Both the position numbers and the translations under genes were made by a program. Under the pieces are notes generated by a model that ran no database searches, was not told where the DNA came from, and worked only from the letters and a program-made list of their open reading frames with translations. Shown in pieces: positions 3,927-64,000 of a DNA stretch of 64,000 nucleotides. Numbering within the stretch: the first letter of the stretch is position 1; each line of letters opens with the position of its first letter. Origin of the DNA: Candidatus Uhrbacteria bacterium (GTDB taxonomy: Bacteria > Patescibacteriota > Patescibacteriia > UBA9934); assembly GCA_018673485.1 (NCBI GenBank), contig JABHCP010000005.1, positions 102 to 64,101 on the forward strand. The letters are read 5' to 3'.

Positions 3927-4277
3927 CTAGGCGACAGGGCGGATCAGCCGCCGGTCGAGCAGCATCCTGATCGTGGCGCCTTTGCGCCAGTGCCAGAAAT
4001 GGAGTCCGATATGGGGAAATATGAGAGTGAAGCCCTCACACCCCTTTTTGACCTCGCGCTGCTCCCGCCAGTCGTACTGGCCGAAGGGGTGCATGATCAT
4101 TACGATCTCACCTTCTTTGGCTACTTCGTGTACAGCGCGGATGAGCGACTGCGCGAAGCTGCCGCCGAGGCCGTCATATTGACGGCCCAGGATTACATGA
4201 TCGATTCGCTCAGCCCACTGGTAGTGGACTTCGCTTTGCTGATTCAGCGTGTTGAGGAATTCCTGAGCGCAGGCCAT
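3927..4277 (-). CDS. hypothetical protein, high-GC islet
   Basis: ~58% GC ORF. Start placed at the internal Met (MACAQEF) because the minus-strand promoter at 4331-4359 lies downstream of the ORF-track start at 4340. AAGGAG Shine-Dalgarno 6 nt upstream of 4277. Confidence 0.45.
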   Translation of the reverse strand: MACAQEFLNTLNQQSEVHYQWAERIDHVILGRQYDGLGGSFAQSLIRAVHEVAKEGEIVMIMHPFGQYDWREQREVKKGCEGFTLIFPHIGLHFWHWRKGATIRMLLDRRLIRPVA

Positions 4278-4330
4278 TCCTGCTCCTTCCGGGGCGGATG
4301 CCCCTTGTGGGTTGGTAGGTTGAACAAGGA

Positions 4331-4359
4331 AATATAGCATAAAAAAGGGCTTTTGTCAA
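4331..4359 (-). promoter_or_regulatory. sigma70-type promoter TTGACA-17-TATATT with extended TGC
   Basis: Minus-strand reading ttgacaaaagcccttttttatgctatatt. Confidence 0.55.
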
Positions 4360-4369
4360 CCCATAGCCC

Positions 4370-4400
4370 TTGATTTGGGGCTAAAATTAGTGTTATAATC
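4370..4400 (+). promoter_or_regulatory. -10 TATAAT (4395-4400) 5 nt before the start codon; possible leaderless mRNA
   Basis: tgttataatcaggacATG with no Shine-Dalgarno; the -35 is weak (ttgatt at 19-nt spacing). Confidence 0.35.
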
Positions 4401-4405
4401 AGGAC

Positions 4406-6220
4406 ATGAAAAAATCTGTGTTCAAAACTATCGCTAGTGTTGCCGCAGTTTTTATTTTTATAGAAGCCATGTTTGCGATTGGGTGGGTTTTGGGAGGAGA
4501 TTTTCAGGTGGTCGATATTACCGTGCCCGTTTTTGGACAGGAAGATATACCGGTTGTTGCATTCACTGTAAACGACCAACCTCAGTCATTGTACGACTGG
4601 GCATATGATCAGGCTAAGGACGTCGAGCATGTTGATGCGAAGTCAGCGATCGTGGCTCACCACCTTGTTGTGGCGGACGAGATCGCAAAAGTTTTTGAGA
4701 CACTTTCAGACGATAGTGTCGATACAGTAATTATTATGAGCCCGAATCATTTTGATCTTGGAGCAACTACTATTCAAACAACCATGGGAAGTTGGGATAC
4801 ATACTATGGCGAGGTTGAGGCTGATCAAGATCTGATTGAGGATTTGGCGGGTGATATTGAGGTGCTGCGAATTGAAGACGAGACTTTCGAGTATGAACAT
4901 GGAATCAGTGGACTCTTACCGTTTGTGGCACGATCATTTCCTGATGCTAAGATTGTTCCACTCGTGATTCATGAGTCACTCAGCGATGAAGATCGAGATA
5001 CACTCGCTGAATCAATCAATGAGCATGCTAAGAACGCAGTTATTTTTGCCAGCATCGACATGTCTCATAATTTACCGGAGCATACTCAAAATTTTCATGA
5101 TGAGATCACTCTACGAGCGTTGGAGATAGGGGATGCTCAAGATATTGAGTTAGAGATCGATGCGAATGTTGTGTTAAATACGCTATTGGCGATAAACAAC
5201 GATCAGGGAAGCCAAGAGTGGCACCTAACACATCATGACAGTTCGCTGGGTATGGAGCTCACTGATAATTACACCGAAAACACAAGCCACATCCTTGGAT
5301 ACTTCACAGATGGTGAATCGTATGATGATATTTTTGCCACACTTCACATTGTGGGGGACATAATGCTCGACCGTGGGGTACGATCATTACTCGAGTCTGA
5401 AGGCCAGGACTATCCATGGTTGAACATGGGGCGATTTTTGTCAGGGGCTCATACTGTTATCGGAAATCTCGAAGGGACAGTGAACGAACTGGCTAGTACA
5501 TATACAGTTTATCCACCATTTAGATTTGTTTTTTCACCTGATTCGATCGAAGTCATGAATGAATATATCGATGTCGTCAGTTTGGCCAATAATCATGCAA
5601 GTGACGTGGGATCGGCTGGTTTGCAGGAGACGAAAGACCGTCTCGACGAGATGGAGATCCCTTGGTTTGGGTCATACGCAACGCCTGTGCCGCGATATGA
5701 CGAGACCCTCAACGGAATCGACCTAACATATATCGGCTATCATCAGTTTCAACCAGATTCGATCGAACTAGTAGCACAGATTGAAGCAGCGGATGATGAA
5801 GGTCGATTTGTAACCGTGTTTCCGCATTGGGGGAGTGAGTATGTTGTAGCTCCAAGCTCATCACAGCGTGAGTTGGCTCAGTTGATGGTTGATGCCGGCG
5901 CAGATTTGATCATTGGAGGACATCCACATGTGGCGCAGGGGATAGAGATTATCGATGATGTGCCTGTGGTTTACTCGTTGGGTAACTTTATCTTCGATCA
6001 AATAGATCCAGCGACATATCCAGCGCTCACCGCAGGTTTGATAATCGATGATAGCGAAATCGAGATTTACCTCATGCCAGTTTGGACGCAAGGAAGCCAG
6101 CCAACGCCGATGAGCGATCAGGAAGCACTGGATTTGTTCTCAGACCTAGCAGAAGTTTCATCAGATGAGCTCGTGACACAAATAAAAAACGGTGTTATAA
6201 CAACATCATATACAAAATAA
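4406..6220 (+). CDS. membrane-anchored fusion: Memo-like (AmmeMemoRadiSam-B) domain plus CapA-type metallophosphatase domain
   Basis: N-terminal TM helix. Memo motifs HH, SPNHF, EHGISGLLPF, IDMSH. CapA/PGA motifs GNLE, SLANNH, GSEY, LIIGGHPHVAQG, YSLGNFIFDQ. Confidence 0.8.
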   Translation: MKKSVFKTIASVAAVFIFIEAMFAIGWVLGGDFQVVDITVPVFGQEDIPVVAFTVNDQPQSLYDWAYDQAKDVEHVDAKSAIVAHHLVVADEIAKVFETLSDDSVDTVIIMSPNHFDLGATTIQTTMGSWDTYYGEVEADQDLIEDLAGDIEVLRIEDETFEYEHGISGLLPFVARSFPDAKIVPLVIHESLSDEDRDTLAESINEHAKNAVIFASIDMSHNLPEHTQNFHDEITLRALEIGDAQDIELEIDANVVLNTLLAINNDQGSQEWHLTHHDSSLGMELTDNYTENTSHILGYFTDGESYDDIFATLHIVGDIMLDRGVRSLLESEGQDYPWLNMGRFLSGAHTVIGNLEGTVNELASTYTVYPPFRFVFSPDSIEVMNEYIDVVSLANNHASDVGSAGLQETKDRLDEMEIPWFGSYATPVPRYDETLNGIDLTYIGYHQFQPDSIELVAQIEAADDEGRFVTVFPHWGSEYVVAPSSSQRELAQLMVDAGADLIIGGHPHVAQGIEIIDDVPVVYSLGNFIFDQIDPATYPALTAGLIIDDSEIEIYLMPVWTQGSQPTPMSDQEALDLFSDLAEVSSDELVTQIKNGVITTSYTK

Positions 6221-6230
6221 TTTATCGCAT

Positions 6231-8069: not shown

Positions 8070-8092
8070 ATAGGATCTATGGAATACAAAGA

Positions 8093-8112
8093 GACCCAGC
8101 CGAGGCTGGGTC
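8093..8112 (-). terminator. hairpin gacccagccgaggctgggtc downstream of the minus gene ending at 8133
   Basis: Perfect 8-bp stem. Confidence 0.4.
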
Positions 8113-8132
8113 TGAGGGTCCGCGTATGCGAA

Positions 8133-8774
8133 CTAAGCAGTGATCTGGAGCAGTTGCATGTACGTGCGATCTTCGCCAGATGAGTGGGGAAATGGACTTG
8201 CCAAGCCAACCATCACCAGACGAGCTGGAACAAGATCTCCAACGGCAATTTGCCCAGCTTTTACTCTTTGGAGTAGAGCCGGATCCTTGATTGGCAAGAT
8301 AACGTCAGAGCGGTCTCGTGTGAACACTCGTAACTGTTTCTTTTCATGTCCAGGAGCGCCAGCATTTACGATTCGTGCGCCAGCTACTTCCCAGAAGGCT
8401 GCTGATCGCTCTAGCGTGGGACTACCTTTGTAGAACGCCTTGTTCCATTCGATGGTGATGTCTGGGAATGAACTAACCGGCCCTTGGTAGGAATGGGCCC
8501 GAGCATGATAGGCAATCGATCCAGGTGAAGCTGTTTGGCTCACTAGCTGACATGCGTTGGGTGCAACGACACTGTCTTCTGGGTGTGTGGGTCGAGTGCC
8601 GATGCAAGTTCTTGCAAATGGAATCTCGACACAACGACCATAGTTCCAGCATCGTGCGTCTTGCCCTGTGTCTAGAAGTGAGCCGTACGTGGGTTGATGA
8701 CCTGGGTCAAGAAGTACCCTGTAGATCTGTTCGTCATCTCCAAGGACGAGCGTGCAGAAGCGACCATGGTTCAT
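8133..8774 (-). CDS. hypothetical protein (high-GC islet)
   Basis: ~60% GC. Start chosen at the Met just downstream of the DUF488 stop; start uncertain. Confidence 0.45.
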   Translation of the reverse strand: MNHGRFCTLVLGDDEQIYRVLLDPGHQPTYGSLLDTGQDARCWNYGRCVEIPFARTCIGTRPTHPEDSVVAPNACQLVSQTASPGSIAYHARAHSYQGPVSSFPDITIEWNKAFYKGSPTLERSAAFWEVAGARIVNAGAPGHEKKQLRVFTRDRSDVILPIKDPALLQRVKAGQIAVGDLVPARLVMVGLASPFPHSSGEDRTYMQLLQITA

Positions 8775-8791
8775 GTCAGTGCGACAGAGGA

Positions 8792-9439
8792 TTACACAAC
8801 GCAATATGCACCTCCATCTTCGATCTTCTGGCGCTTGGCGACCTTGGCGGTCACGAGGTGTTTGACTTCGAGTCCAGTGTGCAGAAAACTGATCATGTCG
8901 GCTGCAAGCGAGCGGTGACATTCCAGGGGATGCTGTTCGACGCACATGAGAGCGATGCGCTCGTGCTTGCCTCGAAGCATGTTGTAGGCAGTGGACAGAT
9001 CAGGCTCTTCGAGCAAGGTGCGCTGATCGGATTGGTGTGTTTCGAACATGACTCGGCGCTCGACCAGCTCCTGGACATACCGTCGCTTGTACTGACGCCA
9101 GAGCTGAGGGGGCGGATGCTTGTCACGGCCTAGGGCAGGTTTGTACCACTTCAGTAGTTTTTCGCTTGGGGCAAGCGCCGGGATGTGTACGTGGTCGATA
9201 TCGTGCACCTCGCAAATGTAGGGCATGTCTCGCAGTGCTGTGTAGAACGTGTAGGCACCGTGAGGGAACAGGCGGACATCCACGAGAAGCGTCACGCCAG
9301 CGTGCTTGAGCATGGCGAAGAGCTCGCGTGCCGTTACATCACCGTAGCCGATGGTGTAGATGATTTTCAGGTGGGGCAATGGCCCCAGACACCCACGATC
9401 CTCTTCGGTCATGGGCATAGTCAGTTCAGTGATAGGCAT
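8792..9439 (-). CDS. DUF488 family protein
   Basis: IYTIGYGDVTARELFAMLKHAGVTLLVDVRLFP matches the DUF488 N-terminal signature. ~57% GC. AAGGAG Shine-Dalgarno upstream. Confidence 0.75.
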   Translation of the reverse strand: MPITELTMPMTEEDRGCLGPLPHLKIIYTIGYGDVTARELFAMLKHAGVTLLVDVRLFPHGAYTFYTALRDMPYICEVHDIDHVHIPALAPSEKLLKWYKPALGRDKHPPPQLWRQYKRRYVQELVERRVMFETHQSDQRTLLEEPDLSTAYNMLRGKHERIALMCVEQHPLECHRSLAADMISFLHTGLEVKHLVTAKVAKRQKIEDGGAYCVV

Positions 9440-9496
9440 CGAAATCTCCTTTTGATACAGGTGAGGGTCAGGTCGATTGTTAGGGGGCAGGGAGCA

Positions 9497-9525
9497 ATGG
9501 TAGTTATAAAATGCATTTTTGTCAA
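9497..9525 (-). promoter_or_regulatory. promoter TTGACA-17-TACCAT
   Basis: Minus-strand reading ttgacaaaaatgcattttataactaccat. Confidence 0.45.
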
Positions 9526-9578
9526 TTATGTAGCCATTATAAGAAAAGAAAAAACACCTCGTTTAGAGATGTATTTTC

Positions 9579-9653
9579 TGGAGCGGGTAGAGGGAATCGA
9601 ACCCTCATATTCAGCTTGGAAGGCTGACGTAATAGCCATTATACCATACCCGC
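9579..9653 (-). tRNA. tRNA-Gly(TCC)
   Basis: Cloverleaf with anticodon loop cuUCCaa and T-arm ggttcgattcc; CCA encoded. Confidence 0.9.
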
Positions 9654-13156: not shown

Positions 13157-13231
13157 TGGTGCCGGAGGAGGGAATTGAACCCCCGACGCAGGGCTCTTCA
13201 GGCCCTCGCTCTACCACTGAGCTACTCCGGC
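13157..13231 (-). tRNA. tRNA-Phe(GAA)
   Basis: gccggagtagctcagtggtagagc...ctGAAga...ggttcaattcc...cca. Confidence 0.9.
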
Positions 13232-13315
13232 GTCATTTCTGATATTATAACCCTTCATTGTAAAACATTGAAGAGTAGTGGTTCCACCACCAATTTGTAT
13301 TGATGAGGAAGCCTC

Positions 13316-13392
13316 TGGTGGGTGTGGGAGGACTCGAACCTCCGACTTCAGTCTTATCAGGACTGCGCTCTAACCACCTGAGCTACACACCC
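13316..13392 (-). tRNA. tRNA-Ile(GAT)
   Basis: gggtgtgtagctcaggtggttagagc...ctGATaa...ggttcgagtcc...cca. Confidence 0.9.
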
Positions 13393-13500
13393 GTTATGTA
13401 TATCAAAAGCGCGATAATCATACGTAAATTTTGACGTTTAGTCAAGGGATATTAGACCCTTGCTATATGTAGAAAAATTTGGTATATTTCTCACGCAAAA

Positions 13501-13577
13501 CGGGGATTAGCTCAGTAGGCTAGAGCGCTTGGTTTGGGACCAAGAGGTCGTGAGTTCGAGTCTCGCATCCCCGACCA
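13501..13577 (+). tRNA. tRNA-Pro(TGG)
   Basis: cggggattagctcagtaggctagagc...ttTGGga...gttcgagtc...acca. Confidence 0.85.
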
Positions 13578-16651: not shown

Positions 16652-16667
16652 CATCAGTTTAAAACAA

Positions 16668-16702
16668 AACACCTCAGTTATTGCTGACTGAGGTGTTTTT
16701 TC
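16668..16702. terminator. bidirectional terminator hairpin aacacctcag...ctgaggtgtt
   Basis: 10-bp stem with a T-run; a near-identical hairpin sits at 17851-17880. Confidence 0.6.
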
Positions 16703-16704
16703 AA

Positions 16705-17850
16705 TTAAAGCCTTTTTCCTCCACCACGCATTTCTTGCTGAGCGTATCCGTCGAGCTCTTGATTGCGTTCCTGCCATTGCTTCATTAGTTCTTTTTGTTC
16801 AGAGAGCCATTCTTGGTAGGCAATTTCGTCTATTTGTTCTTTTTCGATAAATTCAAGTCCTAATTCACGCTTTGCCTCTATTGCAAATTCTTTCATGTCA
16901 CCCTCTAAAAATTCTTCAAACCAACCTGACTCAGCAATGATCCTTCTTTGTTCTTGAGCTGGTATGCTCCACCATGATGACAAAAACTTAAATTCATCCT
17001 CGTCAATCCTAGATTCTGCCCATCCATCTGGAGTCTGAATTCTTTCAAGGTATTCTAGAAGATGGTCGACGTTATCTTCTATCATGTCAGCGTTCGCTAA
17101 TGCTCCACCAAGCCAACTTTCTTGATGGACCATCCCTCGGATCACTTCTGATTCAAAGAAGTACTCAAGGTCTTCAGCAGCAAATATGACAAGATAACCA
17201 AAATCCCGTTCATCTACCACTACTATTTCAGCACTTTGATCTAGCGAGTAGGAGGATTGTGATGCAGACCATTCATTAACAGGCTCAGAATGAATTGTTT
17301 CATCATCTTCATGCGCGCCTTCGTGTATTTCAAGAGAGTATGAAACGACCCGGCCACTATTTTGTCCTAACATTTCTTCAACCGATACAATCTTTACAAA
17401 TGCTTCATTTATTCCAAGAAGATCTAAACCTTGATTTACATCCACATCTCTATAAAAGGCTGAGGCAATATATTCAGGGTCATTAAAGATTTTAACATTC
17501 TCATTATCTAACACTCGTCTTATATTATTTGAACTAAATTCAATGCCATCAATGAAATTTTGAGCTCCTGGAGTGCCGTCAGGTCCGAAGACAAGTTCGC
17601 TCCCAGGTCCATCTCCGGCCGCGATAGCCATTTCCTCTAAAACAGGGCGAATGTATTGCTCACCATGGTCATGAACTTCAATCAAATTTTGAATTTGCTC
17701 TTCTGATGCCTGTTCCATATCGTGCCCACAGCCTGGTGCAAGCAGCAGCGCCGTTGCACCACAAATAAAAGCAGATCGAGCGCTTGGTCCTTTGTTGTCT
17801 GAATGGTTTACCATATAGCAGTATTTTACCTCGATCACGACGGAAAACAA
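16705..17850 (-). CDS. lipoprotein, hypothetical
   Basis: LLAPGCGHD lipobox. Start may be the internal Met near 17814, because the hairpin at 17851 abuts the ORF-track start. Confidence 0.6.
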   Translation of the reverse strand: MFSVVIEVKYCYMVNHSDNKGPSARSAFICGATALLLAPGCGHDMEQASEEQIQNLIEVHDHGEQYIRPVLEEMAIAAGDGPGSELVFGPDGTPGAQNFIDGIEFSSNNIRRVLDNENVKIFNDPEYIASAFYRDVDVNQGLDLLGINEAFVKIVSVEEMLGQNSGRVVSYSLEIHEGAHEDDETIHSEPVNEWSASQSSYSLDQSAEIVVVDERDFGYLVIFAAEDLEYFFESEVIRGMVHQESWLGGALANADMIEDNVDHLLEYLERIQTPDGWAESRIDEDEFKFLSSWWSIPAQEQRRIIAESGWFEEFLEGDMKEFAIEAKRELGLEFIEKEQIDEIAYQEWLSEQKELMKQWQERNQELDGYAQQEMRGGGKRL

Positions 17851-17988: not shown

Positions 17989-19483
<1,495 letters not shown>

Positions 19484-47068: not shown

Positions 47069-47078
47069 CAGGTGGTGC

Positions 47079-50310: not shown

Positions 50311-50385
50311 TGGTGACCCCAGGGGGAATCGAACCCCCATTTCCAGGATGAAAACCTGGCGTCCTAACCATTAGACGATGGGGCC
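50311..50385 (-). tRNA. tRNA-Glu(TTC)
   Basis: ggccccatcgtctaatggttaggacgccaggttTTCatcctgg...ggttcgattccccc...acca. Confidence 0.9.
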
Positions 50386-50634
50386 GGGGTATGTACCTTC
50401 TTTTAATTCCTTACGAACTTTACCAGATCTTTTGATTTGACGTTCTCTTTGAATTGCCTCTTTTTTGTTCTCGTAAACTTCGGAATAAATTAATCTGTAT
50501 GGTACAAACGGCTTCGTTGATCTTGTTTTTCCAGAATTATGCTCAAGCAATCGACGCTCGATATCATCTGTTGAGCCAATATATAGACACTTATTTATCT
50601 CACTTTGTATTACATAAACGAAATATATAATCAT
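50371..50634 (-). CDS. small GIY-YIG nuclease-family protein (YhbQ/UPF0213-like)
   Basis: IIYFVYVIQS...LYIGSTDDIERRLLEHNSG...REKQIK. The stop codon lies inside the tRNA-Glu 5' end. Start at the internal ATG with a GGAGA Shine-Dalgarno. Confidence 0.7.
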   Translation of the reverse strand: MIIYFVYVIQSEINKCLYIGSTDDIERRLLEHNSGKTRSTKPFVPYRLIYSEVYENKKEAIQRERQIKRSGKVRKELKEGTYPGPIV

Positions 50635-50671
50635 ATGCGTCTCCGGCGTAGCCGGACCCGGCTCCGCCGGG

Positions 50672-50698
50672 CTAACCATTAGACGATGGGGCCGGGGT
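50672..50698 (-). repeat. 27-nt duplicate of the tRNA-Glu 5' end (direct repeat partner of 50364-50390)
   Basis: ctaaccattagacgatggggccggggt occurs at both sites. Confidence 0.8.
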
Positions 50699-52903: not shown

Positions 52904-53139
52904 AGGAAGGGTGGTAGAAGGGGTATACGCCTATCGGCGTAGTGGTATAAGGGGTAGAGGAGGAGGGAATTGAATTCGATCGAATTTTTATCTCGAATTC
53001 CTGAAGGAGTGAGAGATCTTCTGATAATAGGGAATAAAAAAACTCGGCTCGTCGCCGTGTTTTCTTGCACACAATTTCTAAATTGAGTGTAACGATTTCA
53101 AAGCGTCTTGTCAAACGGGAAAGTTTAAAGTGTTGGAGC

Positions 53140-53258
53140 TGTTTAAAGTGTTTGCTTCGAAATAAACATTTTAAACAAGTAAAGGCACAGCCTTTACGAT
53201 TCAACATTTTAAACCTTCCCTCAAAAGCACAATCACCCCGAACGAGTCGGGGTGTGAG
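53140..53258. repeat. ~115-nt 3'-flank repeat module R5 (TGTTTAAA-type AT-rich segment, aaaggcNNNgccttt hairpin, GC terminator hairpin)
   Basis: Aligns base-for-base (~80%) with 57575-57693. Confidence 0.7.
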
Positions 53259-53277
53259 TCGGCGCGGGTCGCACCGA

Positions 53278-53538
53278 TCAGGCGCTAGGACGGTGGACCT
53301 GGGCCGAGGCGTGGCTGAGCTCCATGACCAGTTCGGACAGATTTCTGGCGATGCAGTTCATGCCACCGCGCGCGGTGTGGCGCAGGGTGAGTACCTTTCC
53401 GCTGGGGCTCCGCGCCATGACTCGCTTGTTGCCACTGGGCAGCTTTTCGGTATCGATGACATCCCAGCGGTGACCATTGCAGTCGATGAGGGTGTCGGTA
53501 GGTTGCAGAGCTTCGAATTCTTGCTGACTGATCGTCAC
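53278..53538 (-). CDS. small hypothetical protein (high-GC islet), GTG start
   Basis: GGAGA Shine-Dalgarno; 86 aa. Confidence 0.4.
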   Translation of the reverse strand: MTISQQEFEALQPTDTLIDCNGHRWDVIDTEKLPSGNKRVMARSPSGKVLTLRHTARGGMNCIARNLSELVMELSHASAQVHRPSA

Positions 53539-53591
53539 AGTATCTCCAGTACTAGCTGACCAATGCTAGGCGGGTCAGGAATTGACACTGC

Positions 53592-53620
53592 AGACTAGCA
53601 TTTTTAAGTGAGTATGTCAA
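53592..53620 (-). promoter_or_regulatory. promoter TTGACA-17-TAGTCT
   Basis: Minus-strand reading ttgacatactcacttaaaaatgctagtct. Confidence 0.45.
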
Positions 53621-55420: not shown

Positions 55421-57565
55421 ATGAAAAAAACAACAATAAAAATTCAGGGCATGCATTGCGCATCGTGCGCTACAAATATTTCGCATGCTTTGGAAAAAGA
55501 AGAAGGAGTTAAATCAGCGAACGTTAATTATGCACTTGAAGAAGGGCAGGTGGAATTTGATGACGCGAAAATAAGTGTCGAGAAGATTCACGGGTCGATT
55601 AAAGATCAGGGCTATTCGATCAGTGGTATGGATCATGGTGATGGTCACGATCATGGAGATGAGAAAAGTGTAATGCATAGTGTGATTATTTCAGCTGTGT
55701 TTGCTGTGCCAGCGTTTGTCTTGGCGATGTTCATGATTGATATTCCAGTTACGATTTCTGGTATCGGACTTTCGATTTGGATTCAGGCAATATTTACAAC
55801 GGTTGTGGTGCTCTGGCCTGGTATGCAGTTTCACAAAGCAGCCATTGGTCAGCTCAAGCGCATGCAGGCAAGTATGGATACGCTGATTTCCATGGGAACA
55901 AGCGTGGCGCTAGTGTTTAGTTGGTATCAGATGTTTATTGGCGGCGAGGTGTACTTTGAAACTGCGGCCGTCATTACTACGTTTATTCTTTTGGGAAGAT
56001 ATTTGGAAGCAAAGAGTAAGGGTAAGGCAAGTGAGGCAGTTTCGAAATTGCTAGAGCTTGGCGCTAAGTCCGCGCATTTAATCCAATCAGATGGGCAGAT
56101 CAAAGAAGTGTCGATCGAACTTTTGAAAGTTGGTGACAATGTACTTGTGCGTCCTGGAGAAAAGATTCCACTCGATGGAATTGTAGTTAAGGGCAATTCA
56201 GTTATTGATGAATCAATGCTGACAGGGGAGAGTGTGCCGATTCACAAGCAAGAAGGCGAGCTTGTGTATGGCGCGACGGTTAATCAACAAGGATCACTAA
56301 CAATCGAAGTACAAAAACTTTCAGCAGACACAGCTTTGGCGCAAATTGCACGGCTCGTGAAAGAAGCTCAACAACATAAGGCACCAATGCAGAAGTTGGC
56401 TGACAGTATTGCGGGTGTGTTTGTTCCAGTTGTCGCAGCTATCGCAATTTTGGTTGGTGTGATTTGGTTCTTTATTACTGGCGAGCTCAACGAGTCATTG
56501 ATTCCTGCGGTCGCAGTGTTGGTTATTGCTTGCCCGTGCGCTTTGGGGCTTGCAACTCCAACTGCAATTCTTGTTGGAACAGGGCGAGGTGCCAAAGAGG
56601 GCATATTGATTAAAAATGGAGAGGCACTTGAGCGTGGTCGTAATTTAGATGTGATCATGTTTGATAAAACTGGTACGTTGACTATTGGCAAGCCAGTTGT
56701 GACAGATGCGATATCAAAGGATCAAGATTTTTACACAATTTGTGCGTCACTTGAGTACCACTCCGAACATCCGCTTGCGCGCGCTATTGTAAATTACTCA
56801 CAAGAGCAGGGAGGTGAGGTGAAAGAGATCGAGAATTTTCAATCGATTGCGGGTAAAGGTGTAGAGGGATTGCTCGACAGGAAATTGGTCAGAATCGGAA
56901 GCCCAGCATTCATGCATCAGAGCGGATCAATCGATCACGAATATGTCGATGCGATCGAAAGGTTGCAGGATGAGGCTAAGACCGTGGTGCTTGTTTCGAT
57001 CGAAGATAAGATTATCGGATTACTTGCCATTGCTGACGCTCCAAAGGAAAATGCAGCTCAGACGGTAAAGCAACTTAAAGAGCTTGGACTCGAGGTGATG
57101 ATAATCACAGGTGACAATAAGCGAACCGCTATGGCGATTGCGAAGAAGTTAGGAATTGAACAAGTTGAGGCTGAGGTTTTACCTGATAAAAAGTTGGAGA
57201 TTGTGAAAGCGGCACAAGCCAAGGGTAAGCATGTTGCTTTTGCAGGTGATGGTATTAATGATGCGCCGGCTTTAACTCAAGCAGACTTAGGTATCGCGAT
57301 TGGATCCGGAACCGATATTGCAATTGAGGCCGGGCAGATTGTGCTGGTAGGTGGTGGACCCGAGAAAATCTATAATGCAATCATGCTGGCGCGACAAACG
57401 TATAAAACTATTCGACAGAATTTATTCTGGGCGTTTTTCTACAACGTAATCGCAATACCACTAGCAGCACTCGGCCTACTAAATCCTATGATTGCCGCCG
57501 CCGCCATGGCATTCTCATCAATATCAGTTGTATTGAATTCACTGAGGTTGAGGAAGAGGGTTTAA
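55421..57565 (+). CDS. copA: copper-translocating P-type ATPase
   Basis: [11 protein letters not shown]; CPC motif ([11 protein letters not shown]); DKTGTLT; GDGINDAP. Confidence 0.9.
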
Positions 57566-57574
57566 ATTGTTGAA

Positions 57575-57693
57575 GATGTTTAAAGTGTTTACGTCGAAAT
57601 AAACATTTAAACAAGCAAAGGCGGTGCCTTTGCGATTAAACACTTAAACATTGCATAAAAGCACAGACGCCCCGACCAATGGTCGGGGCGTTT
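57575..57693. repeat. ~115-nt 3'-flank repeat module R6
   Basis: Homolog of R5; its GC hairpin gccccgacc...ggtcggggc terminates the minus gene 57713-58912. Confidence 0.7.
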
Positions 57694-57712
57694 AAGGTAG
57701 CACACGAGGGCA

Positions 57713-58912
57713 CTAGTCTTCGTCTTCGAGGTACATGCTCTTATTGTCGTCAGCACCGATACGTTTGCCGGCTGTCGGGCGTTGCGGTGTTAACTTACGC
57801 GTGCGTACCGGTTGGGTGGCCTTCACGATGAACTTGTCACCTCGCTCCATCACAGTGGGAATTTCTGGCTGATCAACATCACGTGTCGCACTGGGCGACA
57901 CGACTATGCCAATGCCTTTTGGCGGCGGCGGCGGTGCTACATTTGCCGCTGCTTTACCTAAGCCAGCAGGTGCGCTGGTGCGTGGTGTTGGAGCACGCGC
58001 GACGGGAATGGAGATGCCATCATAGTCATCCATTCCTGGGCGGAATACGGTTACGGCGCCATCTCGCTTGAGTCGTCGACGCGAAATTCCCTCACTGACC
58101 CGGCTGTTCACGAATGCGACAGTGTCGCTGTCTCCTGGAGCTGGTTTGACACCAACCTCCATCATTCGTTGCGCAAAGCGGAGCTCGATGCGTCGGATCA
58201 GGCTCGAGAGAATGGTCTCGAATCTGGATGCAACGATTGCAATGTGATCATTTCCTACCCACAGGTCAGGTGGATCTCCCACAACCGTAGGTTTTTGGGG
58301 CGGGGGGTCAATGTCGACCGACAGCAATTGGCTGCAGACCTTGTAAAAGATCCAGTAGCCTGCCCACAGCAAGAGGTTGAACGGGTTTCGCTGTTTGCGT
58401 TGGTATGCTTCGATCTGCTTGTTTACTTCTTCGATGATCATGCACTGACCAAAGTAGAACATGGGCAGGATCTCGATGTAAGGGTATTCCTCTCCTCTAT
58501 GTCCAAATCGAAGGATAAACGCACTGCCACGGATCAGTGGTACGTGCTGGAGCATGTTGAGTGCTCGCTTTACTTCATCCATGATGGCGTCTTTGTTGTC
58601 CGGCTTCATGTCGATGGCATTGCGGATCTCGGGATCATTGGGCAGGATCTGCATCCGCCAAATGCACACAGTCTCGACTCTTGCATTTTCAGTGTTCTCT
58701 CGTTCGCTCCAACTTTCCAGCGTGAGGGCGATGGTGCAGCTGAATTCCGTCACACCCGCTTGCGAGTGCAGTAGAATTTTTTGCGCAACACCAGATGTGG
58801 GGCCGAACACATAGTGCTCTGTTGGGAATACCGGCGCTCCCTGGGTGATGATGTTGTGTACTCGCGGATGTCCGTCTTCGAGCAAATCGAATGCTTGGTG
58901 GATCGTGTCCAT
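57713..58912 (-). CDS. hypothetical protein (high-GC islet)
   Basis: 399 aa, ~60% GC; GAGGT Shine-Dalgarno. Confidence 0.55.
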   Translation of the reverse strand: MDTIHQAFDLLEDGHPRVHNIITQGAPVFPTEHYVFGPTSGVAQKILLHSQAGVTEFSCTIALTLESWSERENTENARVETVCIWRMQILPNDPEIRNAIDMKPDNKDAIMDEVKRALNMLQHVPLIRGSAFILRFGHRGEEYPYIEILPMFYFGQCMIIEEVNKQIEAYQRKQRNPFNLLLWAGYWIFYKVCSQLLSVDIDPPPQKPTVVGDPPDLWVGNDHIAIVASRFETILSSLIRRIELRFAQRMMEVGVKPAPGDSDTVAFVNSRVSEGISRRRLKRDGAVTVFRPGMDDYDGISIPVARAPTPRTSAPAGLGKAAANVAPPPPPKGIGIVVSPSATRDVDQPEIPTVMERGDKFIVKATQPVRTRKLTPQRPTAGKRIGADDNKSMYLEDED

Positions 58913-59083
58913 TGTGACCTCGGCGGTGAAGGGGCAGGTGTGAGCTAACTACAATTCATCATGTTTTTGGGGTTTTGTCTAGTTTATTTATTACACCATT
59001 CACCATCTCGACGCATCGGAGAGATCTTCTAGTCACGATCGAAACTAAGAGGATTTCTCCTGGACGTCGAAATGAGGAGTGAG

Positions 59084-59173
59084 AGTAAAAAGCAAAACAC
59101 CAACCAAGGGCAGTGGTGCACGCTTAGAGAGCGTGGCACTGCACCTGGTCGGCAGGTGGGGCGGGGAGTTGAG
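59084..59173 (-). repeat. ~90-nt intergenic structured repeat (copy 1) with two hairpins and TTTTGCTTTTT tail
   Basis: ~93% identical to 60175-60264; starts 4 nt after the stop of 59177-60079. Confidence 0.7.
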
Positions 59174-59176
59174 AGT

Positions 59177-60079
59177 CTAGCCCTCGGTGGGCTCGGGCGT
59201 GAGCCACTGGCCCGGGAACATGTCCGCGATCTGCTGAGCTCGGCGCAGTCTGTTGCTGGTCATGTTGTGCAGGAAGTTGGCGAGGTGCTTGTCCATGATG
59301 GTTTGGTAGCGTTGCCCGGAGCGCATGCACATGTACTTACCAATGAGGCCATGGAACTGGGTAAGCACCAGAACAGTATCGCACAGATCTCGGTGGCCGT
59401 GCAGGTGACCGATCGGCGTGTGTCCTGAGCTGTAGTTGTGCATGCGGTGCAATTGGAGAAGTGCGTTCTCGTTAGCGCTGTAGGACATCTGACTGTCACT
59501 GAGCGCAAGCTGAGCCATCTCACCGAGGCAGCCAAGTTCTTCGGTAGGCAGGAAACGCACTCTCAGCAGCGTACCTTGGGCGAGTCGGAGCATGAGCGGG
59601 TGTTGGGGTGGAAGGGCATCGAAGTGCATGCGTGCGCATTCCATAAGCTGATCGGACAGCTGCATGGGGCTGTTGAGGATCTGGATCCACAGGCGTTTCC
59701 ATGCTTGCAACATAAGTGCGAGATCGCTGTTGATGCTATGCAATACTGGGTCGCAGAGCTCGGCAAACCGAGCCATGTATGTTGCTGGCTTGGGGCCACA
59801 TTTGGATGTCATTATGATACCCTTGCCGTCATTGGATAAGGCCGCGGTGTACGTGGTGTCGTACATGAGAACATTCTGCTCGCGCAGGACTTCGAGCTGG
59901 TCGATCAAGTCATCGTGGCCAGGGAGTTGACCCGGGCAGAGCTTTTGTTCCAAGCCGATCTCGGGGATCTCCAGAACGACGTGGCCTGGCCCTACGATGG
60001 TGATCCGCAGGCTCGCACGCACGTTGTGGATGTCGCCGGTAAGCTGGTCGATGAGCTCCCAGGGCGTTGCGCTTTTCAT
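59177..60079 (-). CDS. calcineurin-like metallophosphoesterase (high-GC islet)
   Basis: Motif order GDIHN ... ANEN ... GHLHGH; start at MKSATPW with a GGAGA Shine-Dalgarno. Confidence 0.5.
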   Translation of the reverse strand: MKSATPWELIDQLTGDIHNVRASLRITIVGPGHVVLEIPEIGLEQKLCPGQLPGHDDLIDQLEVLREQNVLMYDTTYTAALSNDGKGIIMTSKCGPKPATYMARFAELCDPVLHSINSDLALMLQAWKRLWIQILNSPMQLSDQLMECARMHFDALPPQHPLMLRLAQGTLLRVRFLPTEELGCLGEMAQLALSDSQMSYSANENALLQLHRMHNYSSGHTPIGHLHGHRDLCDTVLVLTQFHGLIGKYMCMRSGQRYQTIMDKHLANFLHNMTSNRLRRAQQIADMFPGQWLTPEPTEG

Positions 60080-60140
60080 GATGTTCTCCGTGTGAGGGGA
60101 CGCTTCTTGTAAGAGTAGAGATACTCGGAAAGAAGGCATT

Positions 60141-60169
60141 AGATTAGCCTGTTTTGCCCGCGAGGTCAA
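60141..60169 (-). promoter_or_regulatory. promoter TTGACC-17-TAATCT
   Basis: Minus-strand reading ttgacctcgcgggcaaaacaggctaatct. Confidence 0.45.
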
Positions 60170-60174
60170 TAGTG

Positions 60175-60264
60175 AGTTAGAAAGCAAAACACCGACCAAG
60201 GGCAGTGGTGCACGCTTAGAGAGCGTGGCACTGCACCTGGTCGGCAGGTGGGGCGAGAGTTGAG
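60175..60264 (-). repeat. ~90-nt intergenic structured repeat (copy 2)
   Basis: Directly abuts the stop of 60265-60459. Confidence 0.7.
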
Positions 60265-60459
60265 CTAGGCCGCAGCTCCCTTGGCGTCGTTGATACCGGT
60301 GGTGTCGGGGTCGACGAAGAAAGCCTCGGGGCCTCCTTTGCCGTCGCAGTGGCAGTCCTGCACCTGAGCGTCGAGCTCGGCGTCGATGGTCTGGGGGTTG
60401 GTGGGGCTGGGCTCGACCAGGTTGGCGAGCTCGTGTCGTGAGAGCTTGGTAGGGCTCAT
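60265..60459 (-). CDS. small hypothetical protein (high-GC)
   Basis: 64 aa; Shine-Dalgarno present. Confidence 0.35.
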   Translation of the reverse strand: MSPTKLSRHELANLVEPSPTNPQTIDAELDAQVQDCHCDGKGGPEAFFVDPDTTGINDAKGAAA

Positions 60460-60567
60460 TTTACACTCCGTGCTGTGGTGAAGGGGCCCGCGACTGTGCC
60501 ATAAATATCGAGTTTCGTCAATGCCTTGACTGTATACTGCCTACCGCCTACTGTATACTGTAATTAT

Positions 60568-61611
60568 ATGCGAATACTAGGAATCGAATCGAGTTGTGAC
60601 GAAACTGCCTTGGCGCTTGTGGTGGGCAAGGGTGACCAACTTAAGGTTGAGAACTCTACAGTGCTCTCTCAAATCCAAACTCATCAGCAATATGGTGGAG
60701 TGGTACCCGAGGTTGCAGCGCGCGAGCACCTAGCTGCGATTTTTCCTATGCTTGAGCGCGAGATTCCGTTTGATGGAAAAGGGATCGATGCCGTTGCGGT
60801 GACGTCAGGTCCAGGCTTGGCGCCGGCGTTGCGGATCGGAGTTGAAGTCGCAAAGACCTTGGCATGGAGCTGGGGCGTGCCGCTTGTTGGAGTTTGTCAT
60901 CTGGAAGGTCACATATACGCTAGTTGGTTGCCAAGGGCTAAGCGATTGTTTTTATTCTTGCCGCAGAAGACTCCAATATTTCCCGCACTTAGTCTTATAG
61001 TTTCGGGTGGACACACTGAGTTGGTGTTAATGCACGACCATGGAAGATTTGAGCGCATTGGTGAGACAATGGATGATGCTGCAGGTGAAGCATTCGATAA
61101 AGTTGCAAAGATGTTAGGACTTCCATACCCGGGTGGGCCACACATTGCGCGCTTGGCAGTGGGTGGTGATACAAAAGCATTTGATTTCCCACGTGGGCTT
61201 TTGGATAGAGATAATTTTGAGTTTAGTTTTTCTGGATTAAAGACATCGGTTCTATATACTTTGCGTAAAAATGAGGATAAACTTGAGAATGTTGAGTTTA
61301 GGCAAAACATCGCTGCGTCTTTTCAAGAGGCTGCGGTTGATGTGCTGACACAGAAGTCTATGAAAGCGATCGAGAAGTATAAACCTAAGTCGTTTATTCT
61401 TGCAGGTGGAGTCGCAGCAAATATTGAGCTGCGAAAGCGGATCAAAAAAGAAGGAACGCGGCGAGCAACTAAGGTATTTGTACCACCGTTTACCTATTCG
61501 GTTGATAACGCAGCGATGATCGCTGTCGCTGGATATTTCCGAGCACAGAACGATAAGAATTTCGTAGAACCTGAGGACTTGGCGGCCGACTCAAATATGG
61601 ATATTGTTTAA
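60568..61611 (+). CDS. tsaD: tRNA N6-adenosine threonylcarbamoyltransferase
   Basis: MRILGIESSCDET; Kae1/TsaD HxxH-type metal site; GGVAANIELR. Confidence 0.9.
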   Translation: MRILGIESSCDETALALVVGKGDQLKVENSTVLSQIQTHQQYGGVVPEVAAREHLAAIFPMLEREIPFDGKGIDAVAVTSGPGLAPALRIGVEVAKTLAWSWGVPLVGVCHLEGHIYASWLPRAKRLFLFLPQKTPIFPALSLIVSGGHTELVLMHDHGRFERIGETMDDAAGEAFDKVAKMLGLPYPGGPHIARLAVGGDTKAFDFPRGLLDRDNFEFSFSGLKTSVLYTLRKNEDKLENVEFRQNIAASFQEAAVDVLTQKSMKAIEKYKPKSFILAGGVAANIELRKRIKKEGTRRATKVFVPPFTYSVDNAAMIAVAGYFRAQNDKNFVEPEDLAADSNMDIV

Positions 61612-61653
61612 TTCACTCTGTCATTCCGTAATCACCCATCCAGAGGAGCCTAA

Positions 61654-61993
61654 AGGCGACGAAGGATCCCGTAGATATATGCACGACGATTATCATTTCG
61701 TATACATCATGACCAACACAAGGCACACTGTTTTGTATACTGGTTTTACGTCAGACCTAGCGAAGAGAAATTACGAGCATAAAGAAAAGTTGGTTGCGGG
61801 TTTCACGAAAAGATACAATGCGACTGAGCTTGTTTATTTCGAGTGTATAGAAGATCGAGATTCAGCCCTTGCTCGAGAAAAACAGATTAAAGGTGTTAGT
61901 AGAAATAAGAAAGAATTTTTAATTAATTCAAAGAATCCTGATTGGAGAGATTTATCTGATGACATACTGTAACGATCGGGATCCCTCGGCCGT
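61654..61993. mobile_element. ~340-bp unit: GIY-YIG ORF bounded by ~17-bp terminal inverted repeats
   Basis: Left ggcgacgaaggatcccg; right cgggatccctcggcc (reverse-complement match 10 of 11 in the core). Confidence 0.4.
61679..61972 (+). CDS. small GIY-YIG nuclease-family protein (YhbQ-like)
   Basis: YHFVYIMTN...LYTGFTSDLAKRNYEHKE...REKQIKG. The ORF-track start at 61604 (TTG) is also possible. Confidence 0.7.
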   Translation: MHDDYHFVYIMTNTRHTVLYTGFTSDLAKRNYEHKEKLVAGFTKRYNATELVYFECIEDRDSALAREKQIKGVSRNKKEFLINSKNPDWRDLSDDIL

Positions 61994-62825: not shown

Positions 62826-62873
62826 AATAGGTCTTATAAGACCTATTGGACATATACTGGCAGACCTATTCCG

Positions 62874-63003
62874 ACAAACAAAACAACCGCCACACCACTA
62901 ACCCATCCCGACGTCCAGGAGGGATCCACTGAAACAAAACAACCGCCACACCACTAACCCATCCCGACGTCCAGGAGGGATCCACTGAAACAAAACAACC
63001 GCC
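62874..63003. repeat. tandem 57-nt repeat (2.3 copies) ending in terminator hairpin aacaaccgcc...gcggttgtt + T-run
   Basis: Unit aacaaaacaaccgccacaccactaacccatcccgacgtccaggagggatccactga repeated with period 57. Confidence 0.75.
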
Positions 63004-63100
63004 TGAGAGAATGCGGTTGTTTTTTATACACTGAGCACCACGTGAGTGATGCGCATTGCATGTGCCCTCGGGTGAGGGCGAGAGAAGTGAAGGAGCTGAT

Positions 63101-63379
63101 CTAGTGGCGCATTGTGCGCAGCATCGCCTTGTAGACGAGCCATTCGCGCAGGGCCATCGCGAAGGCCTGCAGCACGGTCCAGGTGATGGACAGGGCGACG
63201 CCGATCATGGCACCGCTTGAGACCCAGACCACCAACGTTTCCAGGGAGTAGTTGGGTGCCATCAGCACTCCGAAGATCTCGCAGACGATCATGCAGATCA
63301 CCATGCCGATGAAGGCATAGGGATAGCTGATCTTCTTGAAGTACTTGTTGAAGAGGTTGCCAAGGGTCATCTCGGACAT
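63101..63379 (-). CDS. small membrane protein (high-GC)
   Basis: 92 aa, 2 TM segments; GGAGA Shine-Dalgarno. Shares the upstream motif aaactttggcggacgcccga with the next gene. Confidence 0.45.
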   Translation of the reverse strand: MSEMTLGNLFNKYFKKISYPYAFIGMVICMIVCEIFGVLMAPNYSLETLVVWVSSGAMIGVALSITWTVLQAFAMALREWLVYKAMLRTMRH

Positions 63380-63484
63380 GATGTCTCCGTTTTGAGTGAA
63401 AGTCCACCAAAGGCCATGATATTATTATGAACTTTGGCGGACGCCCGAGGTGAGTCGGGCAGTACGAAGTCGATGAGACGTTTC

Positions 63485-63682
63485 TTAGCGTCTCTTGAGG
63501 ATCGGGGTCAGGAAGGTACCTCCAAGTAGTACCATCAAAGCACCCAAGGTGCTCATGATGCGTGGGAACACGATGTTCCTGGGGTCGTTCACCTGCCACG
63601 AGAACTCGACGCCAATGGCGATGAGGCCGAGCAAGATGATGGCGAGCCCGACAAGGGCCCAGATACGGTTTTTCTTTTCCAT
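63485..63682 (-). CDS. small membrane protein (high-GC)
   Basis: 65 aa, 2 TM segments. Confidence 0.45.
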   Translation of the reverse strand: MEKKNRIWALVGLAIILLGLIAIGVEFSWQVNDPRNIVFPRIMSTLGALMVLLGGTFLTPILKRR

Positions 63683-63810
63683 CGATATTCCTCGTAGCCC
63701 TTTGATAGATGCTACTGGTTATAGGTCCGCCAAAATCCAGAATCAAGTTCTAAACTTTGGCGGACGCCCGACAGTTGCCAGGCGTGAGGAAGGAAGGGGG
63801 CGATCTCGCT

Positions 63811-64000
63811 AGAAGGGCCGTGGCCCATCGAGCTTCTCGTTCCAGGTGAGAAGGCAGGTCGCCAAGCCGATCGCCGCGAAGACTGCGCCCAGGGTGATCG
63901 TGAAGAAACCGTAGAGAACGGACTCCTTCAGGCTGCCACCACCGTTGAAGGCGATGAAGAAGCCGAGGGCGAAGGCCGCGATGATCGCGGTCTTGCCGAG
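63811..64000 (-). CDS. 3' end of a high-GC membrane-protein gene continuing beyond the window
   Basis: Open minus-strand frame with GC3-rich codons ending at the stop near 63811. Confidence 0.3.

Follow-up and report, generated by a model that had tools for sequence, protein, structure and literature searches.

We analysed a 64,000-nucleotide stretch of the Candidatus (Ca.) Uhrbacteria bacterium contig JABHCP010000005.1 (positions 102 to 64,101, forward strand; hereafter the window, in which all coordinates are positions), where islets rich in guanine plus cytosine (GC) lie between ordinary genes, here called host genes. The window holds a 16S rRNA gene (17993-19483, minus strand), five tRNA genes and the housekeeping genes uvrA, uvrC and rpsP, together with those for a MurL-type ligase, SMC, ClpP, RecQ, TsaD, TsaE, a copper ATPase and VanW. 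Its GC content is 45.9% overall with a median of 45% (200-nt windows), not the ~38% given in a first-pass annotation of this DNA. The GC content of third codon positions (GC3) in host genes is ~0.40 (0.26-0.53), the lowest value in the window being that of rpsP (0.26). Between the housekeeping genes we found 11 loci with ~16 transcription units of 52-66% GC, and these islets are the subject of this analysis.

Organisation of the GC-rich islets

Segments of at least 54% GC extend over 3751-4350, 8351-9500, 24601-26350 (65% GC), 30601-31000, 33.65-34.55 kb, 41751-42450, 45651-47700, 53201-53600, 57651-60550 and 62901-64000. They coincide with or lie near every islet listed in the first-pass annotation, whose range of 55-67% GC is replaced by the measured one and which had missed islet 5 (33802-34416, minus strand). 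The 16S rRNA gene and a dihydroorotate dehydrogenase gene (28204-29355) are GC-rich too, but ordinary. The best-supported islet open reading frames (ORFs) are all on the minus strand, as first annotated, and their promoters, Shine-Dalgarno sites and terminators agree in direction, although public gene calls put islet 1 on the plus strand and a mildly GC-rich gene (44519-44926, 50% GC) is encoded there. The GC3 of these minus-strand ORFs is 0.59-0.98 (the graded range is given from 0.44), against ~0.40 in host genes, and GC content falls from third to first to second codon positions (GC3 > GC1 > GC2), the order expected for true coding sequence.

The units share a recurring organisation. The promoter is AT-rich, typically TTGACAAAA, 4-5 nt, TTTTTA, n and GCTAnnnT. 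Between it and the ORF (one, rarely two) lie a C-rich leader (40-95 nt) and a Shine-Dalgarno site of the GGAG type. The 3' end is formed by a C-rich stretch that leads into a GC hairpin and a tail rich in T, frequently TTTTGCTTTYT (5 copies vs 0.25 expected, none on the plus strand), and some units are preceded by an upstream insulating terminator of their own. The strict promoter pattern TTGAC[AT]-N16-18-TAnnnT occurs at 20 sites against 3.5 ± 2 expected, 16 of them on the minus strand. Nine of these sites stand before islets or an empty slot, with I1, I2, I3, I6, I7a, I7b, I8 and the empty slot among the units so preceded, and the remaining units have near matches; the TTGACA-17-TAnnnT promoter once claimed for every islet is strict in only ~9-10 of ~16 units. 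All nine occurrences of the motif TTGACAAA are on the minus strand; a relaxed promoter scan gave no enrichment (25 sites vs 26.3 expected). As the strict type also precedes the 16S rRNA, tRNA-Ile, tRNA-Glu and rpsP genes, the earlier description of the islet promoters as host-type is a fair label.

Terminator-like hairpins are enriched in the window (32 vs 18.8 ± 4.1) and strongest at islet 3' ends, with a hairpin and T-run downstream of 13-14 of 16 units. The GC-hairpin terminators and shared 3' modules that had been proposed are real: D3 (78 nt, 97% identity), D8 (58 nt, 83%) and D11 each recur within one locus only. D8 ends both I7a and I7b, D3 lies behind I9a (60255-60178) and I9b (59163-59086), and the D11 hairpin module separates the islet 10 ORFs. 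Since D3 and D8 stand near-identical behind unrelated ORFs, they point to gene conversion or to cargo replacement inside a conserved frame. The GC enrichment spans the whole transcript (leaders 0.53, 3' untranslated regions (UTRs) 0.61), in contrast to promoters (0.35) and ordinary intergenic DNA (0.40).

The cargo described in the first-pass annotation was found in part. Its DUF488 protein is solid (Pfam E=4e-16, 60 bits, above cut-off) and also matches the PADLOC candidate systems PDC-M45/M19, and its Cys-rich protein is present with 524 aa; its metallophosphoesterase is without Pfam or NCBIfam support, and its secreted HExxH protein corresponds to I7b, where HEGYH is present as a motif only. 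The DuOB-like ORF beside DUF488 scores below the Pfam cut-off (E=3e-4, 21.5 bits vs 27), and the DUF488/DuOB-like gene pair is kept in four further sequences (L125-L128; L numbers denote sequences compared with the window). The islet 6 protein matches an NCBIfam KH/RNA-binding family below cut-off (E=6e-8). Scans of Pfam, NCBIfam, PHROGs and PADLOC gave no family for the islet 1 protein, the PHROGs scan none for the islet proteins, and an Rfam scan of the window matched only the 16S rRNA and tRNAs, leaving the islets without an Rfam match. In islet proteins Cys, Trp, Met, Arg, Pro and His are over-represented and Lys, Tyr, Ser and Phe under-represented, a bias that fits weakly constrained, fast-evolving proteins.

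The islets were also recovered in independent assemblies. The window sequence recurs in one JGI metagenome and three ENA assemblies; islet 1 and both its junctions are 100% identical between the window and L002, L003 and L004, from three different assemblies, and an NCBI Ca. Uhrbacteria metagenome-assembled genome (MAG; GCA_018644925.1, contig JABGPN010000017.1) is 99.97% identical to the window across islets 3-5. This identity over islet junctions shows that the window is not an assembly chimera, a possibility raised in the first-pass annotation.

Table 1. Islet cassettes and their parts in the 64-kb window (TM, transmembrane).
Feature	Position	Strand	Details
Islet 1 cassette	3880-4359	-	Promoter TTGACAAAAGCCCTTTTTTATGCTATATT 4359-4331; ORF 3927-4277, 116-aa orphan, 58% GC
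Islet 1 terminator	just 3' of stop	-	Hairpin CCCCCAC...GTGGGGG, then T-run
Islet 2 cassette, two genes	8090-9581	-	Promoter 9525-9497; terminator ~8095-8125
Islet 2 upstream insulating hairpin terminator	~9545-9578	-	Directly 3' of tRNA-Gly
Islet 2 ORFs	8792-9439; 8133-8774	-	DUF488 (I2a); DuOB-like (I2b)
Islet 3 cassette	24640-26382	-	Promoter 26382-26354; 95-nt leader with two hairpins 26353-26259
Islet 3 ORF	24684-26258	-	524 aa, Cys-rich, 66% GC, GC3 0.90
Islet 3 terminator	~24640-24680	-	Apex GTGGAACTCCAC
Islet 4 cassette	30630-30950	-	Near-consensus promoter TTGACATTTAGCCAAAATTAAGCAATACT; ORF 30677-30895, 72 aa, 59% GC; directly downstream of SMC
Islet 4 terminator		-	CCCGCCCTC...GAGGGCGGG
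Islet 5 cassette	33745-34545	-	D2 palindromic repeat 34498-34544; TTGACT promoter-like site
Islet 5 ORF	33802-34416	-	204-aa membrane protein, 53% GC; hairpin and TTTTGCTTTCT behind
Empty/short slot	36760-36988	-	Promoter TTGACAAAAGGGCTTTTTCATGCTATTAT 36988-36960; terminator ends ...TTCTGCTTTTCTGAA
Empty slot transcript (predicted)		-	~200 nt, untranslated, 54% GC
Islet 6 cassette	41800-42359	-	Promoter 42359-42331; C-rich leader; GC hairpin
Islet 6 ORF	41853-42248	-	131 aa, KH-domain-like, 58% GC
Islet 7, three tandem cassettes	45673-47827	-	
I7a	ORF 47079-47723	-	Promoter 47827-47799; 214-aa multi-pass membrane protein
I7b	ORF 46114-46863	-	Promoter 46940-46912; 249 aa, N-terminal TM segment, HEGYH motif
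I7c	ORF 45795-45932	-	Promoter-like site 46022; 45-aa signal-peptide protein, GC3 0.98
Islet 8 cassette	53225-53620	-	Promoter 53620-53592; ORF 53278-53538, 86 aa, 61% GC
Islet 8 terminator	53254-53234	-	CACCCCGA...TCGGGGTG
Islet 9, three tandem cassettes	57660-60520	-	Strong terminator 57691-57667
Islet 9 ORFs	60265-60459; 59177-60139; 57713-58912	-	I9a (64 aa); I9b (320 aa); I9c (399 aa)
Islet 10, tandem small membrane-protein ORFs	63010-64000	-	Terminator ~63010-63040
Islet 10 ORFs	63101-63379; 63485-63682	-	I10b (92 aa, GC3 0.89); I10a (65 aa)
Islet 10 third ORF	~63809-64000	-	Runs past the window end

Counterparts and turnover in related genomes

Syntenic relatives were found by SMC and RecQ scans. 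Their SMC proteins are 86% (L005), 75-76% (L013), 76% (L129) and ~62% (L006-L010 and L014) identical to that of the window, and the RecQ of L045 is 70% identical. All of these relatives (background 41-55% GC) carry GC-rich islets of 54-66% GC, and those with a background of 53-55% have islets of 64-66%. A GC-rich islet directly follows SMC in most relatives, and most of their well-formed GC-rich ORFs share the orientation of the window islets, with exceptions in L129, L014, L010 and L009.

Six window islets, among them I2, I3, I4, I6 and I9c, have position-matched counterparts in relatives that are just as GC-rich but much more diverged than the neighbouring genes (27-52% vs 70-86% identity). 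In both L013 and L129 an ortholog of islet 3 is located upstream of rpsP, and another was found on the short contig L044, where the same promoter and leader are kept. The four copies have a GC content of 0.65-0.68 and a GC3 of 0.86-0.91, and the window protein is 57% identical to that of L044 and 31-36% identical to the others, against 76% for SMC and 65% for rpsP. The family has conserved Cys motifs and whole-codon indels, and the ratio of nonsynonymous to synonymous divergence (dN/dS) is 0.55 in the closest pair, dS saturating near 0.7-0.9 at a GC3 of 0.9 and being uninformative for comparison; judged from its sequence, the islet 3 ORF is protein-coding. The promoter, two-hairpin leader and terminator apex of islet 3 are conserved among the orthologs, and in the leader hairpins (26259-26353, minus strand; L044 183-275; L013 12848-12935) 4 of 14 pairs are kept by compensatory change across three sequences only. 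From this sequence pattern, the leader may be mRNA-stabilising or regulatory.

Similar divergence was seen at other loci. The I9c counterpart beside TsaD (L045 8663-9721) is 27-32% identical to the window protein, vs 83% for TsaD and 70% for RecQ, and that of I6 (L005 1806-2312) is 47-52% identical between flanks of 82-86%. In L013 and L045 the islet 6 slot holds a 134-aa ORF, a weaker match that aligns at the GxxG core and is probably the positional ortholog of I6. The counterpart of I4 (L013 12446-12652) likewise lies directly after SMC (phmmer E=4e-4). Overall, dN is 0.5-0.85 in islets vs 0.09-0.22 in their flanks, and islet proteins evolve 4-8 times faster than neighbouring housekeeping proteins. 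Between the genomes with I3 orthologs at GC3 ~0.9, housekeeping genes are saturated at synonymous sites.

Beyond the syntenic relatives, homologs were few. A word search of 5.8 billion proteins returned one relative of the islet 3 protein (57% identity), and an exhaustive profile search of 1.84 billion representatives returned 23, every named one belonging to Patescibacteria or Ca. Uhrbacteria. For the I2 DUF488 protein two close relatives were detectable, both on Uhrbacteria-like contigs, and the search with the islet 5 protein gave none beyond its own species. No relatives of the I3, I2b, I9c and I7b proteins were found on viral contigs, and the islet 3 protein had no match in phage and plasmid records. 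No homolog outside Patescibacteria was found for any islet tested, and protein searches recovered no donor copy for any islet.

Islet presence and content also vary. At the ClpP-side slot, the window and L005 share the upstream block, promoter and terminator tail, and this frame encloses a 236-aa signal-peptide ORF of 62% GC in L005 and only ~200 nt with no long ORF in the window. Islet 5 lies between VKOR and SMC in the window and is missing from L005 and L013, where the gap is 63-70 nt. Of the presence/absence variation that the first-pass annotation had proposed to look for, these are the two cases; I2, I3, I4, I6 and I9c are instead kept in relatives. Its idea of defined expression contexts is borne out by the ClpP-side frame with its differing cargo and by the 3' modules common to unrelated ORFs.

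Horizontal movement as such, which that annotation had also supposed, is apparent in I5 gain or loss and in I2, a bounded module that was partly exchanged. The I2 cassette matches L125 3315-4806 with 84.7% identity over 1.49 kb, and the copy there has 52-57% GC in a background of ~33% GC. The homology stops abruptly at window positions 9581 and ~8090. Beyond these borders the window has tRNA-Gly and a 596-aa gene, whereas L125 has a small GIY-YIG ORF and a PAS protein. Divergence along these contigs is mosaic (dS 1.1-2.0 in I2a, 0.26-0.32 in I2b and 1.7-2.8 in uvrC), and the low value of I2b relative to I2a and uvrC shows that part of the cassette was exchanged recently between lineages. No integrase, transposase or terminal repeat was found among the scanned window ORFs, the public contig annotation and the I2 ends.

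Several other features accompany the slots. A 59-nt hairpin repeat, D5, is 98% identical at 31001-31059 and 37233-37291, just upstream of the islet 4 promoter and of the conserved block and empty slot, and perhaps represents an upstream module common to cassette slots. That block, ~110 nt of intergenic DNA just upstream of the empty-slot promoter (37090-37200, minus strand), is ~90% conserved in L005 (6700-6810) and has internal complementarity (CTGCAGCC...GGCTGCAG); it had no credible Rfam match at a relaxed threshold and may be an undescribed small RNA or regulatory element. At 16661-17883, a 381-aa ORF (16705-17850, minus strand) of host-like 41% GC and without a Pfam or NCBIfam family is flanked by two 93%-identical copies of the 40-nt hairpin D14. 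The unit is missing from L005, where the 16S rRNA gene adjoins a 160-aa gene, and has the look of an inserted cassette, though without the high GC. Small stand-alone GIY-YIG (URI-domain) ORFs lie near tRNA genes and cassettes, two of them in the window (50371-50679, minus strand; 61604-61972, plus strand; 33% identical to each other) and others at L125 3023-3295, L046 7450-7740 and L050 4847-5128, the L125 copy being directly upstream of the I2 cassette.

Strand, base composition and origin of the islets

Third codon positions on the plus strand are G- and T-rich regardless of host-gene direction, with a plus-strand GC3 skew of +0.24 to +0.26 in plus-strand genes and +0.16 to +0.17 in minus-strand genes, and every relative examined has the same skew. 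From the skew only, we infer that the plus strand is the leading strand, and that the islets, the 16S rRNA gene, four of the five tRNA genes (tRNA sites 13157-13577, 9579-9653 and 50311-50385) and rpsP are head-on to replication; such a placement is unusual for highly expressed stable-RNA genes. At C 0.44 and G 0.27, islet third positions follow the same local skew as minus-strand host genes, which fits long residence.

On balance, we lean towards reading the islets as clade-wide, insulated and self-expressed accessory cassettes native to the Uhrbacteria lineage rather than as recent foreign captures, an interpretation drawn from comparison of sequences. Each unit is organised for autonomous transcription: from a near-consensus sigma70 promoter, behind an insulating terminator in some cases, through a C-rich leader, Shine-Dalgarno site and ORF to an intrinsic terminator. 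The cassettes occupy intergenic slots conserved among relatives, many having been resident since before the genomes diverged, and units were gained, lost, truncated and partly exchanged between lineages. Cassettes would turn over through recombination between related Uhrbacteria, probably following uptake of DNA, and the homology for it may have come from conserved genes on the flanks or from the promoter and terminator modules that units share. The cargo appears to consist mostly of small secreted, membrane, Cys-rich, KH-like RNA-binding or candidate-defence (DUF488 and DuOB-like) proteins; because of the signal peptides, the membrane and Cys-rich proteins, the KH-like protein and the DUF488/DuOB pair, it probably serves at the cell envelope or in interactions with host cells or phages, where fast diversification would pay. 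High GC is an inherited property of the cassette pool over the whole transcript, and its persistence would require either fixation bias (selection on RNA or DNA, or GC-biased gene conversion) or repeated replacement from GC-richer copies within the clade.

Several points weigh against this interpretation. When islet substitutions are polarised with an outgroup, GC->AT changes exceed AT->GC changes by ~2-3:1, opposite to the flux in an AT-rich SMC control, but parsimony polarisation is biased in sequence of skewed composition and inflates the I3 signal, the result being free of this only in I2b (27 vs 9), which has balanced composition and low divergence. This flux indicates that mutation erodes islet GC and that nothing in situ makes the islets GC-rich. 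Long residence under such an excess should have erased a GC3 of ~0.9, yet the four I3 orthologs keep it, and the native-cassette model has to call on fixation bias or repeated replacement; as the UTRs are GC-rich too, codon-level selection alone is an insufficient explanation. Only a handful of relatives were compared, each over at most 20 kb, and divergence past recognition is not always separable from cargo replacement. Neither recombination machinery nor a site signature was found at the cassette ends, and the mechanism of turnover is therefore inferred.

Three other sources of the composition were considered. The codon bias of highly expressed genes was rejected, as rpsP with the same promoter type has a GC3 of 0.26 and the UTRs are GC-rich as well; adenine mutagenesis of the kind found in diversity-generating retroelements was rejected, as A exceeds T on the coding strands; and de novo origin from random GC-rich DNA is unlikely, given a periodicity with GC3 far above GC2.

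The main rival to native cassettes is repeated re-import from GC-richer Patescibacteria or Uhrbacteria, in which alleles were swapped at the same slots through flank recombination, GC is a donor signature and the islets of lower GC3 are older imports undergoing amelioration. Related genomes at 54-60% GC do exist (L012, L014, L008, L046 and L049), and imports would be functional immediately, their promoters and terminators being of the kind used in this clade. Cassette and host divergence are moreover uncoupled, being far lower in I2b than in uvrC but far higher in I3, I6 and I9c than in their flanks, and the GC->AT flux is as expected of imports, as is the gradation of GC3 from 0.44 to 0.98, with I2b, low in GC3 but high in GC1 and GC2, showing the pattern classic of amelioration. 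However, the relatives of 53-55% GC have islets ~10 points above their own background, no sampled genome matches a GC3 of 0.9 and no donor copy is at hand for any islet, while vertical descent accounts more simply for the leader and terminator details and the position that I3 keeps in four genomes; we consider re-import somewhat unlikely. A process in situ, with head-on lagging-strand transcription (conflict mutagenesis) or GC-biased gene conversion both speeding evolution and raising GC, would agree with the skew-inferred lagging-strand position of the units in the window and relatives, with their very strong predicted promoters, with proteins 4-8 times faster than their flanks, with GC enrichment that matches transcript boundaries and with the recombination inside one cassette. 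It is nevertheless improbable: the polarised substitutions run from GC to AT, rpsP combines the same promoter type and strand with the lowest GC3 of the window, I2b as the most recently recombined segment has the lowest islet GC3, opposite-strand GC-rich units occur in the four relatives named above, and replication direction was taken from skew only.

The first-pass annotation had read the islets as genes captured repeatedly and recently from some unrelated organism of high GC, for instance an actinobacterial host cell, and placed behind host promoters. A composition and codon usage like those of a ~65% GC genome (clearest in I3, GC3 0.90), the sharp compositional borders, the presence or absence of islet 5 among relatives and the position of I2 beside a tRNA 3' end speak for this origin. 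The homologs found do not: they are confined to Patescibacteria and Uhrbacteria with no phage or plasmid match, and for six islets the nearest ones sit in the matching slot of relatives and are just as GC-rich, an outcome that the annotation had itself named as contrary evidence. Housekeeping genes of these relatives are saturated at synonymous sites. No integrase, mobile-element gene or terminal repeat was found either, and we regard such capture as very unlikely. Hardly credible is an artefact or non-coding origin, by assembly chimera or as GC-rich structured RNA genes. GC-rich islands often mark structured RNAs in lower-GC genomes (the 16S rRNA gene is one here), the empty slot gives a predicted untranslated transcript, and long ORFs arise spuriously on either strand at high GC; against this stand the junctions identical between assemblies, strong one-strand codon periodicity, protein-level conservation, whole-codon indels, the DUF488 domain, signal peptides and the lack of an Rfam match. 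For the ORF-bearing units, junction identity, codon periodicity and protein conservation refute it. A phage or prophage origin was also rejected, as no PHROGs family, no viral-contig relatives of the I3, I2b, I9c and I7b proteins and no relatives of the I3 protein in phage or plasmid records were found, and so was a defence island, as only DUF488 matches candidate PADLOC systems.

The islets share traits with several known systems. A phage moron, in the usage of Hendrix and Juhala, has a sigma70 promoter, a single ORF and a factor-independent terminator, lies between unrelated genes, and is of atypical composition and variable presence. Like morons, the islets have their own promoter and terminator, a differing composition (52-66% vs 45% GC) and variable presence; unlike them, they lie among chromosomal housekeeping genes and 16S with no phage genes nearby, and many are position-conserved across diverged genomes and all in one orientation. 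With integron cassettes they share co-oriented, mostly orphan and mostly single-gene modules, structured 3' elements and variable cargo in a fixed context. In contrast to integrons, no IntI or attI was found (in scanned ORFs and public annotation; not every small ORF was scanned), a common attC-like site is lacking (the 3' elements are terminators that differ between loci), and each unit has its own promoter, at 11 intergenic sites over at least 60 kb and not in one array. I2 resembles a tRNA-targeted island in abutting the tRNA-Gly 3' end, but has no integrase and no tRNA-end repeat at its far border, and the L125 copy is not beside a tRNA gene.

In the amelioration framework of Lawrence and Ochman, genes of atypical GC are recent imports that drift towards host composition, and imports are usually AT-rich and silenced. 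The islets resemble such alien genes in atypical GC, orphan content, variable presence of some units and flux towards host composition, but they are GC-rich, stand under the strongest promoter type and keep GC3 ~0.9 in orthologs, and they have no donor lineage; by phyletic range, too, they differ, as detectable homologs are restricted to Patescibacteria and Uhrbacteria or are absent. Head-on (lagging-strand) genes reportedly undergo accelerated evolution, according to Merrikh and colleagues. The islets agree in being strongly promoted, on the inferred lagging strand and several-fold faster than their neighbours, but a head-on model predicts neither GC enrichment nor orphan content, and rpsP and 16S share the strand without these traits. 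Our literature search found no description of such a GC-rich cassette pattern in Patescibacteria. Horizontal gene transfer in this group has been surveyed generally, and most transfers were within the phylum (PMC12455944).

A bolder version of the native-cassette reading can be entertained only tentatively. The islets would then form a pool of GC-rich orphan genes, private to Uhrbacteria and shared horizontally among them, each packaged as an insulated cassette (terminator, promoter, leader, ORF, terminator) that plugs into conserved slots by recombination on promoter and terminator frames. Such a pool would be an integrase-free analogue of integrons and morons in a cellular chromosome. With GC actively kept up against mutation (GC3 up to 0.9 in genomes of 41-45% GC) and a fixed head-on orientation, it would constitute a fast-evolving compartment for host or phage interaction in an episymbiont. 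In being GC-rich, lineage-restricted and under the strongest promoter type, and in keeping a GC3 of ~0.9 despite AT-ward flux, the islets break expectation and offer a natural test case for how base composition is maintained in bacteria, whether by selection, biased gene conversion or gene flow. They point to a fast-evolving compartment of small secreted, membrane, Cys-rich and defence-like proteins in bacteria of the candidate phyla radiation (CPR), and GC-based filters for alien genes or contamination would wrongly strip such genuine, conserved parts of CPR genomes.

Repeats and other features of the window

The UTRs of the cassettes are C-rich and G-poor (C 0.32-0.38, G 0.22-0.24), with CCCCTCACC-like runs, for example at 42249-42324, 9440-9490 and 3880-3926. 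KH-domain proteins, a class able to bind C-rich RNA, are encoded in the window by a KhpA-like gene (20135-20668) and by islet 6; a tie between them and these UTRs is purely speculative. Directly downstream of the last islet 10 terminator, a 56-nt unit is duplicated exactly in tandem (D6, 62876-62987). No 23S gene follows the 16S rRNA gene.

A GC-rich palindromic repeat of ~47 nt with the core CTCCCCCTTGGGAAGGGGGAG is present at four loci against none expected (402-448, 2549-2595, 34498-34544 and 44388-44428). Two copies lie in frame inside the uvrA and uvrC ORFs, and the copy in UvrA adds 14 residues (GNPLQLPLGKGEGR) that are missing in the L032 and L028 homologs. The repeat resembles the palindromic elements of Rickettsia, and L129 and L045 contain elements like it; at the 34.5-kb copy an indel distinguishes the MAG sequence from the window.

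Arrays with a 9-bp period, GTTTAAA(A/G)T / AAACATTTT, are found in intergenic DNA at 20712-20744, 21092-21131, 24350-24382, 24503-24616, 53123-53174 and 57560-57611. They flank a PF05635 (23S rRNA IVP/Avd-like) gene (20731-21102) and stand upstream of rpsP and behind the terminators of islets 3, 8 and 9, two of the sites being 88% identical over 52 nt (D10). These arrays could be protein-binding arrays or curved DNA.

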